IMG/VR virus record: IMGVR_UViG_3300017747_002313
Length of the DNA stretch: 64,000 nucleotides
Origin: an uncultured virus (IMG/VR IMGVR_UViG_3300017747_002313)
Taxonomy: Duplodnaviria; Heunggongvirae; Uroviricota; Caudoviricetes; Crassvirales
Reading direction: 5' to 3' (one strand)
Under the pieces are notes generated by a model. It was not told the DNA's origin. It was given only the letters and a program-made list of their open reading frames with translations, and did no database searches. Each line of letters starts with the position of its first letter. Positions within the stretch are counted from its first letter, which is position 1. This document shows, in pieces, positions 14,900-63,673 of this stretch. The position numbers and the translations under genes were made by a program.

Positions 14900-17800
14900 T
14901 TACTTATATATCTTTTCTGCCTTCATTCCTTTCTGTAGTTTCTTCAAGTCTTCAATGTATACGTTTCCTTGAACTTCTCTTAGTTTATTATACTCTGCCG
15001 ACTGTTCTTTAGTAAGGCCTCCATTCTCCTCAACCCATCTGATTTCATTCATAACTTTGTCAATCTTCATCTTTCTTTTAAGTAAGTCCTTCTTGTATCC
15101 GTCAACGTCTCCGAACTCTTTCTTAATTTCTTTGTAGTCTTCAAATTGCTCTTGAGATATTGCGTTTTTCTGAACATACTTCTTCATAGATGTAGCTACA
15201 GAGTTAAACTCTCTTGATAGAAGACCTAAGTTATATAGCGCACTAAATGTAGTAGCAATACCCATAGCTGTCTTATCTTCAGGTAGTATTACTTTTTCTA
15301 CTTTATTTCCTTTAAACTCTTTCTCAAACTTACCAGTAGTAGTCATCGCTATCATGTCATAAAGTTCTTTTGCTTTATCAATTGCAATAGTAGCCGTTCC
15401 AAGATCAATCCATTGTTTAGTTCCGTATTCTTCGAATACCATCTTTTGTGAATCCACAAACTCTTTAATGAATTTTTCTTTTTCTTTTTCAGTCATTGGA
15501 TCTTCACCTCTGTTTTCTAGATATAAATTTCTTTCCTCAACAGCTTGGTTTATATCTTCTTGACTTGCAGTTTTTTCTTGCACAAAGTCAGCAATCGCAT
15601 TGAAACCTTGAATAGTCAATCCGTCTGTCACAGGAAGAGGTGAGAATACATCTTTTACTAAGTTCTGTAATACAAACTTCTTTCTGTTTCTCTTGTTCTT
15701 TTCTTTTTCTTCTTCATCCTCTTCGTAACCAGTAAGCGATGCAGCTATAGCATCGTAAACATAAAGTTTAAGCGAATAAGCTATTACATTATAAGCTGTT
15801 ATTTCAGCAGCTAGACCTGATAATGATCTCCACGCCTTTCTTATATCTTCTTTAGTTGATAATTCTGTGTTTCTAACTGTTCTAAGATCAGATTGAAGCC
15901 TTGTTTTTTGGTTCATAATAAAGTTAGCAAACGGTAAAACAACCTTTCTAACTATCTTTTTAATAGGCTGAGGTGAGTTCATAAAGTCACCCATCATTGC
16001 AGCATCAGAAACGTTTTGCTGTCTTGCTACCATATGCTCAGCATAATCAGCAGCTTCTTTATTTAACTCATGCGTTTTCCAGTCTATATTTCCATTGTAA
16101 AGTTTTTGCTCTTTAAGTGATTGCGTATAGTAAGATTTCCATGCATTACGAGCGATCCAAACATCAGGTTGAGACAAAAACTTCTTTAACCAAAATTCAT
16201 TTATTTTTCTAGCATATTCTAATGCAACCTTTCCTTTTGTATTTGGAGCTTTATCTAGGTATTTATTTGCACTTTCAATAGCTGTAGATGCATCCATACC
16301 TCTATTTGCTATTGCATATCCACTATTGTTAAGCCATGAATGGAAATCAGTATCACTTACCATTCCAGCAAAATCAATATTTCCTACGCCAGCGTTAATC
16401 ATTGTACTTATAAATACAGGAACCGTCTGTAAGGCGGCCTGTGATGGTCCACCTAATGCTCTTGTTGCACCTACTGATGCAGATATATCTAAAAATTTAT
16501 CAAGATCCCCAAGGGTTGCATCAGAGAATGACATCTTATTCTTATATCTAAGAATGTAGTTCTCTACTCTTCTCTTAAGTAACTTAGCGTCCTTCTCTTC
16601 TTGGAACAACTTCTCGTATGACCGTGAGTTTAAGAATGCATCAACACGTCTAATTGCAGACGCTGTATTTACATCTATCAATGCAGACTTAAGTGAGCCT
16701 GCGTTACTCATATCAAAGTCTAGGTTAACAAATCTTGTAGTTGACTTCTTACCTGTGTCTAATGATCTGAAATCTTTGTTTGATTCCATCAATACACCTG
16801 CCTTGTCTTTGTAAGAAACTAGCCCAAGATCAAGTGCGAAAGCCCCAACTTTACCAGTAGCCTCGTCAACAAGTTCTCTTTCTCCGTCAACTCTTGATAA
16901 CCTGTCTGTTGTATAGTTTATATCCTTTCCTAGTTTAGTGTTGTACACAGACAAACTGACATCGTATAACTCAGGGTAGTGCTTAGACCATTGGTCTATC
17001 CACCAATTCACAGCATCAGCATTAATACTGTCAGTACTAGCCTCTATTTGTTCAATCGTAACATCTCCATCAGATAAACCTAGTTTGTCAAATACCTCTT
17101 GATATAGCTCAGCCATTTTTAGTTGATCGTTATTACCGTACTCATTAAGAGTATTGATGCTTTCTTTAATTAAACCTATCCTTCTTTTTAGCTCTGCTTT
17201 CTGTGCTCTTTCATTACCAAGTACAGTTCTTTTTAAGTAGGCCAACATACCACGCTCATATGCGTTGTATGATGTGTTGAACGCCTGATCGTTAGGTCTT
17301 TTCTTAGCAAATGTCTCACCGTATTCATTGATAGCCTTGTTGTATATATTTATTGCTTTAGCAGTTCCATTTGACAACAAATCAAATCCCATCTTCTTCA
17401 TTATAGACATTCCAGACTTAACACCTAAAAACATAGAGTCAAAAAGTACTGGCAACGTAGCGAAGTTCTCGTACCATGCACGCCCAACTACTGGACTAAA
17501 GTATAATCTAAGCTTTTTAGCTTTAATACCTTCAGCTCTAGCTTCTTTTGCTGCAACATCACCTTCGTATGTACTTATAGCTCCATCAAGCCCGTCTGTT
17601 ATGCCGTTTACTATGAAGTTGTCCATAGACTCTACGATAGTGTAGGCATTCTTTACAGACATTGCATCAAGCTTGACATTCATAAGTCTCTTAAGGACTT
17701 CTCTATCTTTCTCACTTACCTCTACTTCTTCACCTGTAAATGGATCTACTTTAGTCTTAAGCATATCCTTTATTATAGTCGAGTATCTGTCAAATCTAGT

Positions 17801-56174: not shown

Positions 56175-56762
56175 ATGAGAACAAGCAAGGATAAGAAAAA
56201 AGATAAGTACGTTATAAAAATTAGACCTAGACCACTCCAGAAAGTAATCGTTAGAGAATACCCAGCACATAACTACATGAAGTACTGGCGTGTGATCAGG
56301 TACTGGGCATGTCGTTACTATAAAGTGACAATGATAGAGCTTGAGATACTTTTCTTCCTGCACGACGAGATGCTGTTCAACCAGACTACGTTCAACTCAT
56401 ACGACAACATCTTCAGGTGGGACACATACAGGATGGCTAGACTAAAAGAAAAAGGGCTCATCAGAACATTCCGTGAACCCACTAAGAACCAATCTAGATT
56501 GTACGAGCTCAGCTTCAAAGCCAAGAAGATGATAAACTCTATCTATAAGAAGCTAAACGGCGAAGAACCAATCCCTGTAAAACCAAGTAGAAACCCTATG
56601 TTTAATAAGAAAGCAGGATTCACAGACAAGGTCTTCGCCATAGCCGTTAAAAATTTTAACGAGGAGTTTAAAGAATCAAGGCAACGTCTCGATACTGAAT
56701 TATACGGTACGTCTGATCTCCACTCCGATAGTCATGACCCTGAACAGCATCATACGCTATAA
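56175..56762 (+). CDS. winged-helix (MarR-like) DNA-binding protein
   Basis: ELEIL.FL...RL.EKGLI...Y.LS.KA; only + strand gene in the late region; TAAATTTG box at 56160-56167. Confidence 0.55.
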   Translation: MRTSKDKKKDKYVIKIRPRPLQKVIVREYPAHNYMKYWRVIRYWACRYYKVTMIELEILFFLHDEMLFNQTTFNSYDNIFRWDTYRMARLKEKGLIRTFREPTKNQSRLYELSFKAKKMINSIYKKLNGEEPIPVKPSRNPMFNKKAGFTDKVFAIAVKNFNEEFKESRQRLDTELYGTSDLHSDSHDPEQHHTL

Positions 56763-56931
56763 CGTCACCCTTCTTAATGTGCTCGTCAACTAATGAGCTG
56801 ACCTCAACTACATCAGCCTCCTGATATCTCTGCTTCACAGTCTCTGAGCCAGTTAACAACAACCCACTCGCAGTCTGCTTCTGCTCTATCTCCCTAGGCT
56901 TAACTACAATAAAACTATTTAACGCTTTCAT
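56668..56931 (-). CDS. groES: co-chaperonin GroES
   Basis: IVVKP.....TASGLLL...V..V......KKGD...Y...D.. Confidence 0.85.
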   Translation of the reverse strand: MKALNSFIVVKPREIEQKQTASGLLLTGSETVKQRYQEADVVEVSSLVDEHIKKGDVIAYDAVQGHDYRSGDQTYRIIQYRDVALIL

Positions 56932-58513
56932 TCTCTCTTACATTTGTGATTATCGCATTCGTACTAAGGATCGTAGTAGCAACAGATACAGCGTTCTTAA
57001 GTGCGTTCTTCGTCACCTTCGCTGGATCTATAATACCCATCTTCACCATATCGCCTGTCTTCTTCTCCTTCACATTATACCCAACACCTACACTACCATC
57101 GTCAAAGAACTTCTCGTAGTCAAGAACCTCGTTGCCATCAACACCTGCGTTCTCACAGATCTTATGGAACGGCTGCTCACATGCCTGTGACATAATATCC
57201 AACGCAACAGACGGAGCTCCATTCAACATCGCCTTAGATGCTACAAACGCAACTGCGTTCACTAGCCCTACGCCTCCACCTGGCAGTACACCATCCTCAA
57301 TCGCTGCCTTCACCGCAAGCACTGCATCGTCAACACGGTCCCTCAACTCCTTCTGCTCGATATCTGAACTCGCTCCGACGTAGATCATTCCTACACCTCC
57401 TGAGATTGACGCAATACGCTCGTCCATGAACTTGATCTCTTCCTCAGAAGTAATCTCCCACTTACTAAGCTTAAGCTCCTTCACATACGCCTCTAGATCT
57501 TCATCAGTGCCGTCAGGTCTTACGATAACAGTGCTGTCCTGACCTACGATGATCTTCTTCGCTCGACCCAATCCTGAAACTGTACACAACGCTAAGTTGT
57601 CACCAGTAGACTCTGAGTAGTAGTGAGCACCAAGAGATCGTGATATATCAGTCATCATCTCGTCCTTACGATACCCGAAGTTTGGTGGAATAATGTTACA
57701 CACCTTGATTTTGCCCTGAACAACGTTCATGTTAAGTGTAGCTGCAACCTGAGCTGACAACTGACCTACAATAAGCAATGGCTTTCCTTCCTTCAGCACA
57801 TGAGCCAGTACGTTCTCGATGTTCGATAGATTATTAATCTCATGATCTGTAAGTAACACATACGCATCCTCCATCACGCACTCCATCTTCTTGTGATCGT
57901 TCACGTAGTACTTAGATGTCCACCCTCTAGCTACACGTATACCCTTAATAACCTCAGAGTATGTCTTCGTTGTCTTAGAGTTCTCTACAATAACATGACT
58001 AACCTGCGAGTACACATCAGCGATCAACTTACCTACAACTGGATCGTTGTTTGCAGAGATCGTCGCTACATCAAGCAGCCTCTTACCACTCACCTTCTTA
58101 GACATACGCCCAAGCTCCTTCACTACATCGTCTGCAATAGACTGTATCTGTCTCAATACCTCAGTCTTGCTGTGCTTCTCTACATCAAAGTAGTCCTCGA
58201 ACGCATCGATAATAGCCTTGGTAAGCACAATACTAGTCGTAGTGCCATCACCTGCCGACGACGCTGTCTTCGATGCTGCCTCCCTTACCAGCTGAACAGC
58301 TAAGTTCTCCACTGGATCGTACAAATTGATTGATCGTGCGACGGTCACACCGTCCTTCGTAACGGTAACACCTCCTATGTGGTGCTCGGACTCTATTAAG
58401 ACCGTCTGCCCTGATGGGCCTAAAGTGGATGAAACTGCTGCTGATATCTTGTCGATGCCGTTTTTCAGTTTCTTACGTCCATTTTCATCTAAAAATATCT
58501 GTTTTACTACCAT
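56915..58513 (-). CDS. groEL: chaperonin GroEL
   Basis: TLGP.G, TKDGVTVA, AGDGTTT, ATISANND, RVDDA..A..AA...G..PGGG, GIIDP.KV. Confidence 0.95.
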   Translation of the reverse strand: MVVKQIFLDENGRKKLKNGIDKISAAVSSTLGPSGQTVLIESEHHIGGVTVTKDGVTVARSINLYDPVENLAVQLVREAASKTASSAGDGTTTSIVLTKAIIDAFEDYFDVEKHSKTEVLRQIQSIADDVVKELGRMSKKVSGKRLLDVATISANNDPVVGKLIADVYSQVSHVIVENSKTTKTYSEVIKGIRVARGWTSKYYVNDHKKMECVMEDAYVLLTDHEINNLSNIENVLAHVLKEGKPLLIVGQLSAQVAATLNMNVVQGKIKVCNIIPPNFGYRKDEMMTDISRSLGAHYYSESTGDNLALCTVSGLGRAKKIIVGQDSTVIVRPDGTDEDLEAYVKELKLSKWEITSEEEIKFMDERIASISGGVGMIYVGASSDIEQKELRDRVDDAVLAVKAAIEDGVLPGGGVGLVNAVAFVASKAMLNGAPSVALDIMSQACEQPFHKICENAGVDGNEVLDYEKFFDDGSVGVGYNVKEKKTGDMVKMGIIDPAKVTKNALKNAVSVATTILSTNAIITNVRENESVK

Positions 58514-60637: not shown

Positions 60638-61025
60638 CACTAAAACCCTTACTACGACTGGGCTGTAGGAGTTTTGCATGTAACATCAACTCAGCACAAA
60701 CCGACACTAAATCGGGCTTTTCAACAAATTCTAACATCTTTTTTCGGGGGTCGCATATTCGGGGGTAGTGGGTAATATACCCATTTCACGTGACCACCCA
60801 TCAAACGAAAACCGATCAAAATCGAGGTGGGGGGTATGCATTTTGGATAAATGCATTGAACTTTTTAGCTTTTTGTTGAGGGGGTGCATGTGGGTAGGTA
60901 GGTAGCACTCTACGCGCGCGCGCACATGTGTATGTATATAGATGGCTGTGGCTGTAGGTATATAGATAGACCTACCAACATACATACATACATATGTTGC
61001 GGCACATCATTCGATCAACCATTCT

Positions 61026-61053: not shown

Positions 61054-61318
61054 GCATACCTAACACCATGCAAGACGATCAATAGATCAACCAATCGGCA
61101 TGCAGTCCGTTCGTTCGGTGATCATAGGCGCATATCATTAGACGTTGAATAACATCCCTAACCAACCAAACTATTGAAAATCTAGCAAAATCCGACGTAA
61201 TATCCGCGTAACTATCTGAAGATCAGTAGATAGATATGTATAAAAGCAAATTGTAACGTGTATTTTTATTTAGAATGAGTATAAATAAGCTATAAAATGA
61301 AAAATAGTTATGCGAAAG

Positions 61319-61350
61319 TTTGCATAATCCAATCAACTGCCGTACATTTG
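61319..61350 (+). promoter_or_regulatory. Bacteroidota sigma-A promoter for the early region
   Basis: TTTG (61319-61322), 20-nt spacer, TACATTTG (61343-61350). Confidence 0.8.
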
Positions 61351-61354
61351 TTTC

Positions 61355-61672
61355 AACAAGATGAGGGAACGACCTCAGATAAAGCTTAAGAGTAATTAAA
61401 AGGGGGTGACAAAGCCAACCACTGAACAAAGCTTAACAACACACATACGATCTTTGAAATAACGAAATCAGCAACAGTTTACTTCTTATCTAATAGAGCG
61501 CAAGTGATCGAACGGTAACAGAGGGATGAGTTGATTAGGACAATGGGCACAGCACCTAGTCGGGGTGTTGAGAATGCTGAAATAATAGACGGATCGCGGA
61601 CAGTTGTCGCGGCGATCACACACGGTGCAGTCAGAATGACTGATTAATGGTAGCGATAACCACTGCACCACT
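61355..61672 (+). ncRNA. candidate structured early leader RNA with boxA-like motif and 3' tRNA-like minihelix
   Basis: Non-coding, several hairpins; GATCTTTGAAA; GGTGCAG...TGGT-AGCGATA-ACCA-CTGCACC-A. Confidence 0.45.
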
Positions 61673-61693
61673 AACCAAATAAAAACAAACACC

Positions 61694-61816
61694 ATGAGAA
61701 CAGTAGAAAGATTAATTGAAGTAGCTTTCATTAGCTTATTTGTAGCGGCATTTATTTTTGTCGCAGTTATGGCCTGCACAGGGCATGTATATGCGAGCCA
61801 TACGGGATTAGGATAG
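61694..61816 (+). CDS. tiny membrane protein (40 aa)
   Basis: Leader motif before ATG; hydrophobic core. Confidence 0.55.
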   Translation: MRTVERLIEVAFISLFVAAFIFVAVMACTGHVYASHTGLG

Positions 61817-61838
61817 TAGATTAATAAACCAAATTACC

Positions 61839-62024
61839 ATGAAAAGATATAGAATTGAACAGACGTTTGCACCAAGTGATGAATTAGATTACGTAGGTCA
61901 AAAAAGATACGTTATAGTTGATAATTTAGATAACTGCATTTTCAGTTGTGAACACATTAGCTATAGAGAAGCAAGTAGAGAATTAAAGGATTTAAACGAA
62001 GACAACCTAAAATTCGAACAGTAA
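61839..62024 (+). CDS. small early protein
   Basis: ORF track plus leader motif. Confidence 0.65.
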   Translation: MKRYRIEQTFAPSDELDYVGQKRYVIVDNLDNCIFSCEHISYREASRELKDLNEDNLKFEQ

Positions 62025-62047
62025 AGTAATCATATAAAACAATTACC

Positions 62048-62203
62048 ATGAAATTCAATTTAATAATTCTAAGCAAAATCAATAGCGATTATTACAGTAT
62101 GCAGGCTTTAGATAGAGAAGGTAACATTGTATATAAAGCTACAATACCAAGTGTAGATGCATGTAAGGTAATAATGAAATATAAGAACGTCAAGATTGTA
62201 TAA
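62048..62203 (+). CDS. small early protein (51 aa)
   Basis: Leader motif AAAACAATTACCATG. Confidence 0.6.
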   Translation: MKFNLIILSKINSDYYSMQALDREGNIVYKATIPSVDACKVIMKYKNVKIV

Positions 62204-62244
62204 TTCTTGACTGGCTAAAATTTAAACCAAATAAACCAAACACC

Positions 62245-62349
62245 ATGAGCAAGATCATTAAAATAGAGGGAGCATATGAGATCATAGGCTTTTTCGTAGA
62301 GGGACAATTGATTAGAACAACTAAAAGAAGAGTAACTAATTGGAAATAA
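62245..62349 (+). CDS. small early protein (34 aa)
   Basis: Leader motif AAACCAAACACCATG. Confidence 0.55.
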   Translation: MSKIIKIEGAYEIIGFFVEGQLIRTTKRRVTNWK

Positions 62350-62374
62350 TATTAACATTTAAAAACTAGAAATC

Positions 62375-62539
62375 ATGAAAATCGAAAAAATAATTCAAGA
62401 GTATAAGTTTATTAAGTTAGTTAAAACAGAAATGATAATGGGGGGAAATTATGCCGTAATTAATGGCGATAGAGCAAAAACAGGTCTAACATTAGATGCG
62501 GCTTATGATCTATTTAAATTATTAAAAAAACTAGGTTAA
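62375..62539 (+). CDS. small early protein (54 aa)
   Basis: A-rich leader; stop codon is part of hammerhead stem I. Confidence 0.6.
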   Translation: MKIEKIIQEYKFIKLVKTEMIMGGNYAVINGDRAKTGLTLDAAYDLFKLLKKLG

Positions 62540-62612
62540 CTGACGAGTCTTAGATAGACGAAAGCAATTAAATGAACGGATGTTCAGCCATGCGAATGGT
62601 TTGCTATTAACC
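62534..62612 (+). ncRNA. type I hammerhead ribozyme
   Basis: GGTTAA-CTGACGA-GTCT(TAGAT)AGAC-GAA-AGCAA...TTGCT-A-TTAACC; all core bases and three stems present. Confidence 0.9.
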
Positions 62613-62628
62613 AAATAAAACAATTACC

Positions 62629-62799
62629 ATGAATAAATTAATCGGATTACTTATGGCTAATGGTATTAGCTATAAGAAGTTACCAAATAACCAATTCCAG
62701 GTAACAAGAGACGTTGTAAGTTATGATCTTAGAAATGATTTACACAAAATAGGATTTAACATCCATTTGTTAGACGTTACTGCAATTATTCACAAGTAA
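62629..62799 (+). CDS. small early protein (56 aa)
   Basis: Leader motif directly after the ribozyme cleavage site. Confidence 0.6.
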   Translation: MNKLIGLLMANGISYKKLPNNQFQVTRDVVSYDLRNDLHKIGFNIHLLDVTAIIHK

Positions 62800-62810
62800 A
62801 ACCAATCACC

Positions 62811-62924
62811 ATGCAAGCAAACGAATTTCACGATCTCAATGATCGCATGACTATTTTACGCATGAAAGCATTGCGTATCACATTGGCAGACGGAATGTGT
62901 ACATATCTGTTAGCATTTAATTAA
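62811..62924 (+). CDS. small early protein (37 aa)
   Basis: Leader motif AAAACCAATCACCATG. Confidence 0.5.
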   Translation: MQANEFHDLNDRMTILRMKALRITLADGMCTYLLAFN

Positions 62925-62947
62925 TAACCAAATAAAAAATAGAAACC

Positions 62948-63160
62948 ATGAGAAAGAATTTTAATTTAAACGACGAAGAATTCATCATCTGTATGAGTTA
63001 CATTCTTCAACAAAAGAATAACTACATCTCTGAGTTAGAGATAGCATTAAAAAACAACAGCAATGAATGCTTGACTGAATACTATCAGAGAGAGATAGAC
63101 AAAATCAACGATTTCGAAGATAGGTTATCATTGAAATTCAACATTAAAATTAACCAGTAA
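62948..63160 (+). CDS. small early protein
   Basis: ORF track plus leader motif. Confidence 0.65.
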   Translation: MRKNFNLNDEEFIICMSYILQQKNNYISELEIALKNNSNECLTEYYQREIDKINDFEDRLSLKFNIKINQ

Positions 63161-63171
63161 AACAAATCACC

Positions 63172-63336
63172 ATGCAAGAAATAATTAATCAAGCAATCAA
63201 CGATATGTTTGTCGGGGTTGCGCAGGATAATGGATTGTCAACGGGGGACATCAGTCCCCTTGATGATATGATCATTGATGATATAAAGGAACAGTTGCAA
63301 GAGGTATTGCAACGATTTGTAGAACAAAACAGATAG
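63172..63336 (+). CDS. small early protein (54 aa)
   Basis: Leader motif AAAACAAATCACCATG. Confidence 0.6.
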   Translation: MQEIINQAINDMFVGVAQDNGLSTGDISPLDDMIIDDIKEQLQEVLQRFVEQNR

Positions 63337-63338
63337 CC

Positions 63339-63557
63339 ATGTACGGAAGAGTAACAGATCAGAAGCTTAAAAGCTACGGAAAGATAGTAGAGTATTGGCC
63401 TAACAAGTTGAATAGGTACATGCGTCACGTTAGATTCCAAGGCAGCGAGAAGACGTACACCATGAGCAAGGACGCGATCCAGGATTTAAATGACTTGGAG
63501 ATGATCGAGCAATGGGAGTCTATAGATAGACAGATGTTAAACCAAATAAACAAGTAA
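63339..63557 (+). CDS. small early protein
   Basis: ORF track. Confidence 0.6.
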   Translation: MYGRVTDQKLKSYGKIVEYWPNKLNRYMRHVRFQGSEKTYTMSKDAIQDLNDLEMIEQWESIDRQMLNQINK

Positions 63558-63559
63558 CC

Positions 63560-63673
63560 ATGAAAGCAAAAACATTTTTACCCTTGTTCACAGGGTTCTA
63601 CGGATCAATATGGGATGACGTAGATTTTTACGGAGAGGACGAAATCAGCCAGTATAGTATTAACGAAAATTAG
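63560..63673 (+). CDS. short ORF (37 aa, MKAKTFLPLFTGFYGSIW...), possibly truncated
   Basis: Leader motif before ATG. Confidence 0.4.
   Translation: MKAKTFLPLFTGFYGSIWDDVDFYGEDEISQYSINEN

Follow-up and report, generated by a model that had tools for sequence, protein, structure and literature searches.

A type I hammerhead fold with a conserved three-way junction on stem III, set between small genes of an uncultured Crassvirales phage

The stretch of DNA analysed here (the window) is bases 1-64000 of a virus record of 65,576 nt, which has direct terminal repeats and is rated 100% complete. The genome encodes a terminase, a portal, a primase and a helicase; a GroEL (532 aa) and GroES (87 aa) pair is encoded at 56668-58513 on the minus strand. 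Among terminase relatives, phages of Flavobacterium, Cellulophaga, Tenacibaculum and Maribacter supply the relatives from cultured viruses and make up 86 of the 87 records (best identity 42%), while the remaining record is an uncultured virus with 67.5% identity. Because of these relatives, of a promoter pattern and of a run of small genes with A-rich leaders and no Shine-Dalgarno sequences, the host is likely a member of the Bacteroidota, and the rightward run of small genes is presumably an early operon.

The run is headed by a predicted promoter 1.2 kb upstream of the hammerhead, in a region that is similar in loci L001, L074 and L044. Its pattern is one that we take to be the Bacteroidota-type consensus. 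A scan for Sigma-70 promoters gave 13 sites against 16.3 expected and was uninformative. A 340-nt non-coding stretch follows the promoter, and then come genes of 34-72 aa. The long non-coding leader at 61357-61620 (plus strand) has several hairpins and no Rfam match, and GATCTTTGAAA at 61449-61459 presumably resembles boxA. Positions 61256-61461 are 95% conserved in L001/L004, while the rest of the leader varies by strain; folded whole, the 346-nt operon leader has a z-score of -0.94. Upstream of the promoter, in the non-coding gap of divergent gene blocks, there is an AT-rich imperfect inverted repeat (60924-60997), possibly an origin or packaging region. Beyond the window, a second Bacteroidota-type promoter pattern lies at 64275 (genome C1:64275-64526) and a tRNA-Gly(GCC) at 64441-64526, the latter called by ARAGORN only at a relaxed threshold.

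The leaders of the small genes are A-rich and lack a Shine-Dalgarno sequence. At 61671-63560 (plus strand) a leader repeat (TAACCAAATAAA...ACCATG type, family D1) stands before most of them. Gene swaps between strains break at this repeat, and the stretch looks like a cassette-like shuffling region. For ten small operon genes no PHROG or Pfam family was found. The features that matter here, all on the plus strand, are as follows.

61319-61350, plus: predicted Bacteroidota-type promoter (TTTG, 20 nt, TACATTTG) at the head of the rightward small-gene operon; regex scan
61624-61670, plus: tRNA-like fold before the first gene, a three-way junction that lacks an anticodon arm; in 7 sequences 9 of 15 pairs covary and 105 of 105 cells pair
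62375-62539, plus: upstream small gene, 54 aa, no family; open reading frame and family search
62534-62612, plus: type I hammerhead ribozyme, whole; descriptor search with shuffles, covariation in 40 relatives
62534-62539 / 62607-62612, plus: stem I, 6 bp; 5 of 6 pairs covary
62537-62539, plus: stop codon TAA of the upstream gene, inside stem I; sequence
62540-62546, plus: catalytic core C3-A9, CUGACGA; sequence
62547-62550 / 62556-62559, plus: stem II, 4 bp, with pentaloop UAGAU (U-N-A-N-U); 3 of 4 pairs covary
62560-62562, plus: G12-A14, GAA; sequence
62563-62567 / 62601-62605, plus: stem III, 5 bp, closing the three-way junction; 4 of 5 pairs covary
62568-62572, plus: unpaired junction strand UUAAA; invariant in alignment A1, shared by the lineages with GGUUAA and with ACCAA in stem I
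62573-62586, plus: hairpin a, 5 bp, with a GGAU tetraloop; 5 of 5 pairs covary
62587-62591 / 62596-62600, plus: hairpin b, 5 pairs with G-U at the base, GCC/GGY base and variable top; the tops still pair
62604-62606, plus: CUA triplet, H17 = A62606, predicted cut 3' of A62606; hammerhead numbering
62607-62628, plus: 22-nt A-rich leader of the predicted 3' product; sequence, repeat family D1
62629-62799, plus: downstream small gene, 56 aa, no family, ATG at 62629; open reading frame, swapped for other genes in close relatives

The initial annotation had proposed a hammerhead at 62534-62612 with the upstream stop codon inside stem I. Every element that it named is in place on the plus strand, the stop being the TAA at 62537-62539, and the covariation of relatives backs the identity. 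The core reads C3 U4 G5 A6 N7 G8 A9 with G12 A13 A14, the core positions listed in PMC3088659, and three helices of 6, 4 and 5 pairs close it without an adjacent mismatch, stem I being open-ended. This is the type I form. In the alignment of relatives (A1) the core is invariant except for N7, most search patterns having fixed it. Stem III starts with A15.1-U16.1 (A62563-U62605), followed by G15.2-C16.2; the first of these pairs is the same in all 40 aligned relatives, as the selection scripts demanded. The CUA triplet and the cut after 62606 also stand, as a prediction, with A62606 as H17 by sequence. CUA is permitted by the NUH/NHH rule (PMC8495972). CUC is given as an active site in PMC3138052 and PMC11875169, the parts of which used here do not mention CUA, and a literature search found no paper on rates for CUA versus GUC triplets. 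Some of the first description of stem III has to be amended. The positions of its helices and hairpins hold, but the second hairpin has five pairs with G-U at the base and not CCAU/AUGG alone, and the linker UUAAA (62568-62572) had been overlooked.

Could such a site arise by chance? With a loose type I descriptor run over both strands of the whole genome, 62534-62612 is the sole site; when the genome was shuffled 200 times with its dinucleotides preserved, 7 loose sites turned up in total, none of them with stems of 6/4/5 pairs. Our own model, R1, has one match in the genome, the window copy itself being in its training set. The fold z-score is -2.29, with 3 of 200 shuffles folding equally well. 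Stem III is present in the centroid and absent from the minimum free energy structure, where core bases pair instead with the 3' strand of stem III. In a 141-nt context the pair probabilities are 0.72-1.0 for stems I and II and both hairpins, and 0.36-0.55 for stem III; with 220 nt of context, the prediction has stem I mostly open (unpaired 0.63-0.82).

At the gathering score Rfam gives no match in the whole window, and by E-value only a weak Hammerhead_1 match plus chance matches. Scored against the hammerhead model RF00163 (Hammerhead_1), a check that had been proposed for the site, it reaches 16.7 bits against a cut-off of 34 and so is not filed under RF00163; the model closes stem I wrongly because it has no room for a stem III domain of 43 nt. 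RF03152 (RAGATH-1-hammerhead) is absent from the matches listed for 62500-62650 at E up to 10, and the stem II of the site is 4 pairs long. The unbranched relatives also fall under the Hammerhead_1 cut-off (best 26.1 bits), and on 20 related loci the Rfam matches were two to Hammerhead_1 and two to RAGATH-1-hammerhead, all four weak, plus one each to twister-P1 and a snoRNA. As far as sequence comparison can establish a fold, we regard 62534-62612 as confirmed to be a genuine type I hammerhead.

Scans aimed at G15.2 and UUAAA yielded 44 unique hammerheads, the window copy included, that carry the same stem III domain, namely a stem III of 4-5 bp, UUAAA, a hairpin of 4-5 bp with a four-base loop (hairpin a), and a hairpin with a GCC/GGY base and a free top (hairpin b). 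The 44 copies comprise 30 distinct domains and 21 distinct stems II. The loop of hairpin a is of NNAU type (GNAU in 40 of 44), the lengths of stem III and hairpin a are coupled (5/5 in 37 copies, 4/4 in 5, 4/5 in 2), and 15 copies have the CUA triplet. When metagenomes were scanned, 48 of 66 matches were complete hammerheads and two of the other 18 were interrupted by contig ends. Alignment A1 consists of 40 branched sequences, L022 being excluded (it has UUAAA and a single hairpin). In A1, pairing holds in 97.8% of 915 cells and two-sided change is seen at 17 of 23 pairs, counts that overstate the independent events because the sequences fall into few lineages (GGUUAA; GAUUAR; ACCAA stem I with an 8-base loop II). 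None of 500 shuffles was as good, and slid controls pair in 33-46%. UUAAA is invariant in 40 of 40, being part of the search patterns behind most of the sequences.

The pairs at the base of hairpin b are G-U in 37 of 40, C-G in 37 of 40 and C-G in 40 of 40, with two-sided change in none, and RNAalifold recovers stems I, II and III as well as hairpin a from A1 and omits hairpin b. The case for hairpin b therefore comes from the pairing of its variable tops. Two branched copies, L717 (295-404) and L733 (231-340), have a hairpin b that is longer by about 35 nt, so its top is free. A lineage comprising L265, L268, L272, L297, L348 and relatives has a 5-bp stem I, an 8-base loop II, an extra hairpin past the cut and an ATG about 51 nt away; in 11 cases it stands before one ATPase-like gene. 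L013 (1429-1530, minus) and L406 (515-630, minus) have multi-branch stem III domains without UUAAA; stem III branching therefore arose more than once.

The triplets of branched and unbranched copies differ. A scan of the full viral collection with position 15.2 left free gave 54 unique matches, 22 of them branched, and all 22 have CUH (19) or UUC (3). Among 120 relatives of a set gathered with a stem I pattern, by comparison, there are 96 GUH, 23 AUH, one UUC and no CUH.

A descriptor of the junction alone finds 33 domains in loci L001-L750, most of which had been fetched for the core, and 32 of these domains lie immediately behind a hammerhead core; in a core-free scan (25 of 64 parts of the viral collection, one sequence variant) this is true of 6 of 7 junctions. 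The idea of a free-standing motif was rejected, since the one domain of 33 without a core looks like chance. Pairing of UUAAA with the UUAA of stem I was likewise rejected, because the ACCAA/UUGGU lineage retains UUAAA. The UUAAA strand has, in our view, a presumable resemblance to the pistol ribozyme; pistol identity was rejected, as there is no Rfam pistol match and the domain is a nested junction, not a P1 pseudoknot.

The initial annotation had called the branched stem III unusual. Most relatives do lack it, but it is no one-off: judged from the alignment, it is a conserved three-way junction and a subfamily trait of phage hammerheads. No description of a conserved three-way junction on a hammerhead stem III was found in a search of mostly open-access literature, with Dataset S1 of Perreault 2011 outside the comparison, and the passages used of PMC10085705 and PMC13481778 do not describe one. 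The junction thus appears to be new to the literature.

The wider family is large. A pattern that fixes part of stem I matches 128 loci in 13 of 64 IMG/VR parts and about 630 viral stretches in all. Among the matches listed for the 128 loci, 6 further loci and the window, the full type I topology is present in 130 of 144 unique ones, with up to five copies per locus (L075, within 1.7 kb). Because this pattern forces the 3' strand of stem I, the scan was repeated with stem I free. It then gave 133 unique matches, comprising 73 of type I, 21 of type III and 39 of neither type; stem I is mostly 6 pairs long and free in sequence, GGUUAA being the commonest at 10 of 73. GGUUAA/UUAACC as a fixed family trait was accordingly rejected, the first pattern having imposed it. 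All scans together supply a biased pool of 277 unique type I copies, in which stem I has 6 pairs in 242, the base just before stem I (position 2.7) is A in 257, and position 1.7 is A in 230. Where loop II has five bases (212 copies), U1 occurs in 209, A3 in 192 and U5 in 173. The Hoogsteen contact described between stem I and loop II uses U at 1.7 (PMC11875169), where the relatives have A.

Among 154 unbranched relatives, a first ATG opening at least 30 codons was found in 148, at a median of 22 nt from the cut (interquartile range 20-23), so this spacing is common to the family, and 127 of 154 upstream ORFs stop inside the ribozyme or at most 15 nt before it. As proof of translation coupling the stops in stem I are weakened by the fact that TAA and TGA belong to the motif itself. 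In GTDB genomes the fold is present in 20 of 103 pattern loci. Eight of the 20 are labelled Bacteroidota, including a complete Paraflavitalea chromosome; the other 12 have other labels, and 11 of these belong to MAG contigs no longer than about 10 kb, which may be mis-binned phage.

Unbranched copies occur in two cultured phages, unannotated in both: Cellulophaga phage phi19:3 (NC_021789.1, 21769-21817, minus) and Flavobacterium phage elemoE_6-9C (NC_055854.1, 16304-16361, minus). Both have a type I core, a 6-bp stem I and an A-rich leader after the cut, as in the window, and in phi19:3 the upstream gene also ends at the ribozyme. They differ in that stem III is a simple hairpin and the triplets are AUC and GUC, respectively. 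A third record was searched for a hammerhead and had none. With blastn against cultured phages, the window ribozyme gave no match and a second branched copy matched in the core only (E 0.6).

What surrounds the devices varies greatly. The 44 branched copies precede 21 protein clusters and follow 26 (44 downstream and 40 upstream ORFs found); eleven copies of the ACCAA lineage precede one ATPase-like protein, so read from its P-loop. The window gene at 62245-62349 has no device in front of it here. Its relatives are preceded by a branched ribozyme in L538 and L548, by a plain hammerhead in L020, L110, L051, L041 and L114, and by the tRNA-like fold in L526 and L074. Likewise, the first gene of the operon comes after the tRNA-like fold here, and its relatives follow a branched ribozyme in L498 and L526. 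Since one gene family can stand behind a branched, a plain, a tRNA-like or no device, these are swappable and optional punctuation marks. The tRNA-like fold at 61624-61670 has a 7-bp acceptor-like stem, two 4-bp arms and an AGCGA loop, followed by A, and was not called as a tRNA by ARAGORN. A cut after A61670 would leave a leader of 23 nt, near the 22 of the ribozyme.

Close relatives conserve 62224-62621 and then have a different gene; L001/L004 match to 62621 and resume at 62818, and the similarity of L006 is limited to 62515-62633. DNA contigs were compared over the region in four runs, labelled lake water, freshwater (two) and plankton metagenome; no RNA run is listed among those that contain the stretch. 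In a lake contig (run X3) 62633-62802 is replaced, another contig joint omits 61835-62237, at plain leaders, and the loose ends of lake contigs are at 62532-62533, 62563-62565 and 62620. The ribozyme as the point of recombination was considered and rejected, because plain leaders are sites of swapping too.

It is a known arrangement for hammerheads to lie between small phage genes, and the new element appears to be the conserved stem III junction. Perreault 2011 described hammerheads flanking variable prophage genes, demonstrated that three clusters cleave, and suggested that single-gene mRNAs are produced by this processing; clustered phage hammerheads cut both in vitro and in E. coli, and 4 of the 18 consensus hammerheads tested in that study failed to cleave (PMC3088659). 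Those phage clusters and HHphage of the haloviruses HF1/HF2 likewise have a consensus core, lie between small unrelated genes, often several per operon, and cut shortly before a start codon in the early region, as is predicted here; the HHphage cut is 13 nt before an early gene, where the 5' end of the transcript was mapped (PMC3088659). Hammerheads of type II, with pseudoknots, with insertions in the core or with weak stems are described by Perreault; in the parts of that paper used, a conserved multi-branch stem III is undescribed (PMC3088659). RF00163 shares with the window copy the type I topology, CUGANGA, the 4-bp stem II and GAAA, but its model cannot span the stem III domain. RF03152 shares the type I core, a stem I of 5-6 bp and a longer stem III; it differs in the stem II of its model, which is 1 bp long, and in an additional hairpin upstream, and two unbranched relatives match it weakly (26-29 bits, cut-off 56.3). 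Type I aptazymes engineered for E. coli also have a folded domain attached to stem III through a stem of 4-6 bp and bases of the 5' UTR of the downstream gene in stem I, but they are synthetic, with a known aptamer and a buried Shine-Dalgarno sequence (PMC7445771), whereas the leader here has no Shine-Dalgarno sequence and its key adenines lie outside stem I.

The 3' product would begin with the leader shared by the early genes. This part of the initial annotation holds, but neighbouring genes have the leader without any ribozyme, so cleavage is not needed to make it. As most operon genes have a leader and no device, the ribozyme is optional and its benefit may be small. The leader at 62607-62628 has A at -3, -6, -9 to -12 and -14 to -16, with the 3' strand of stem I at -22 to -17. 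In F. johnsoniae, initiation is increased by adenines at -3, -6 and -12 (PMC6847099). The prediction has positions -16 to -1 open both before the cut (0.75-0.97) and after it (0.90-1.0), and cleavage is therefore unnecessary to expose those adenines.

What might the ribozyme do? We judge constitutive cleavage of the early transcript after A62606 most likely, with moderate confidence. One transcript would run from the promoter at 61319-61350 through the hammerhead, and the ribozyme would cut this multi-gene RNA in the cell with no signal needed, by acid-base catalysis of G12 and G8 3' of H17 that leaves a 2',3'-cyclic phosphate and a 5'-OH (PMC8495972, PMC6765202). The early polycistron would thereby be processed into a 5'-OH mRNA, as had been suggested for this site. 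The next gene would be freed on an RNA starting at U62607 with its 22-nt A-rich leader, and the whole three-way junction would stay on the upstream piece, at its new 3' end, where it likely props up the short stem III and shields or caps that end. UUAAA may pack by A-minor contacts into the GCC/GGU helix; a further contact, between stem I and loop II, may run through the UNANU loop and the As that flank the 6-bp stem I. Because stem I contains the stop codon, a ribosome that terminates would unfold the ribozyme; cutting would therefore take place between ribosomes or before the first one. The benefit might be separately tuned mRNA lifetimes.

Several other suggestions can be made. The cleaved ends might attract host nucleases, so that the ribozyme lowers expression on one side of the cut, in the manner of glmS, where RNase degradation follows cleavage (PMC6765202). 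An optional and movable device fits such a dosage knob, and the upstream piece would lose its downstream context just 67 nt past its stop. We nevertheless think this unlikely: 5'-OH ends are poorer substrates of RNase E (PMC8495972), the tRNA-like fold occupies the same slot and would give a near-identical leader, and the full-length, well-formed leader kept by the cut suggests that the 3' product is meant for translation. Stem I might mask the landing site of ribosomes on the next gene until cleavage. Its 3' strand (-22 to -17) lies at the edge of the low-structure zone of -20 to +20 in F. johnsoniae (PMC6847099), and there the unpaired probability climbs from 0.63-0.82 to 0.96-0.99 after the cut. 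Yet -3, -6 and -12 are outside stem I, -16 to -1 is open either way, and homologous genes occur without any device, which leaves a masking role with a slim chance.

Another possibility, raised in general form by Perreault 2011 as regulated cleavage (PMC3088659), is that the junction binds a small molecule, an ion or a protein, locks stem III and so switches cleavage. The rare G15.2-C16.2 pair would then serve as a docking site or communication module; the invariant unpaired UUAAA, the conserved NNAU loop, the GCC/GGY base, the marginal stem III, the coupled lengths of stem III and hairpin a and the CUH or UUC triplets of all 22 branched copies found with position 15.2 free could all be read in this way, and the layout is that of the engineered E. 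coli switches, with an aptamer on a type I stem III (PMC7445771). Against this, the branched copies show no link to gene function, unlike riboswitches; ordinary A-minor packing explains conserved As, as in loop 1 of pistol (PMC8495972); the triplet association may be a single inherited founder state; and the domain is always found with hammerheads save once in 33. We consider such gating quite unlikely. Very unlikely, too, is that the module is a mobile passenger or recombination hub that lets cassettes swap, with cleavage tolerated more than selected. Relatives do break off at its edges (L006, L001/L004, lake contig ends) and L075 has several copies close together among the matches listed, but swaps take place at plain leaders as well (joints 61834-62238 and 61815-62223), and the helices change in sequence with pairing and core retained, which means selection on RNA structure and not on DNA identity. 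Finally, the score under the Rfam cut-off, the uncommon CUA triplet and the competing folds would suit a relic or a chance match without cleavage; the shuffle test, the covariation, the presence of CUA in about a third of branched copies and the NUH/NHH rule (PMC8495972) make such an inactive look-alike highly improbable.

Reviews call the role of bacterial and phage self-cleaving ribozymes open (PMC6765202, PMC6155905). A gene family that is found with a branched, a plain, a tRNA-like or no device before the same leader offers a clean test of that role, and unbranched relatives sit in two phages that have been cultured, as have their hosts. The family is large, one stem I variant alone accounting for about 630 viral stretches, and it lies under Rfam cut-offs. 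The junction on stem III is a natural addition, compact and covarying, at a position regarded as dispensable. Should the junction gate cleavage, it would be one of the first natural aptazymes: a metabolite, an ion or a protein would set the moment at which the early transcript is cut to give the next gene an mRNA of its own, and Bacteroidota phages would have evolved a layout that engineers built by hand. If it merely stabilises, as in constitutive cleavage, it would still be a new natural hammerhead architecture.

A few minor observations concern the relatives. In elemoE_6-9C the type I copy (16304-16361, minus) is covered by an ORF call on the opposite strand, gp65, and a probable type III hammerhead at NC_055854.1 18057-18132 (minus) overlaps the annotated start of gp59. 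At L228 the twister-P1 match (545-609, minus; 47.5 bits, E 4e-8, cut-off 67.2) lies just upstream of a plain hammerhead of the family.
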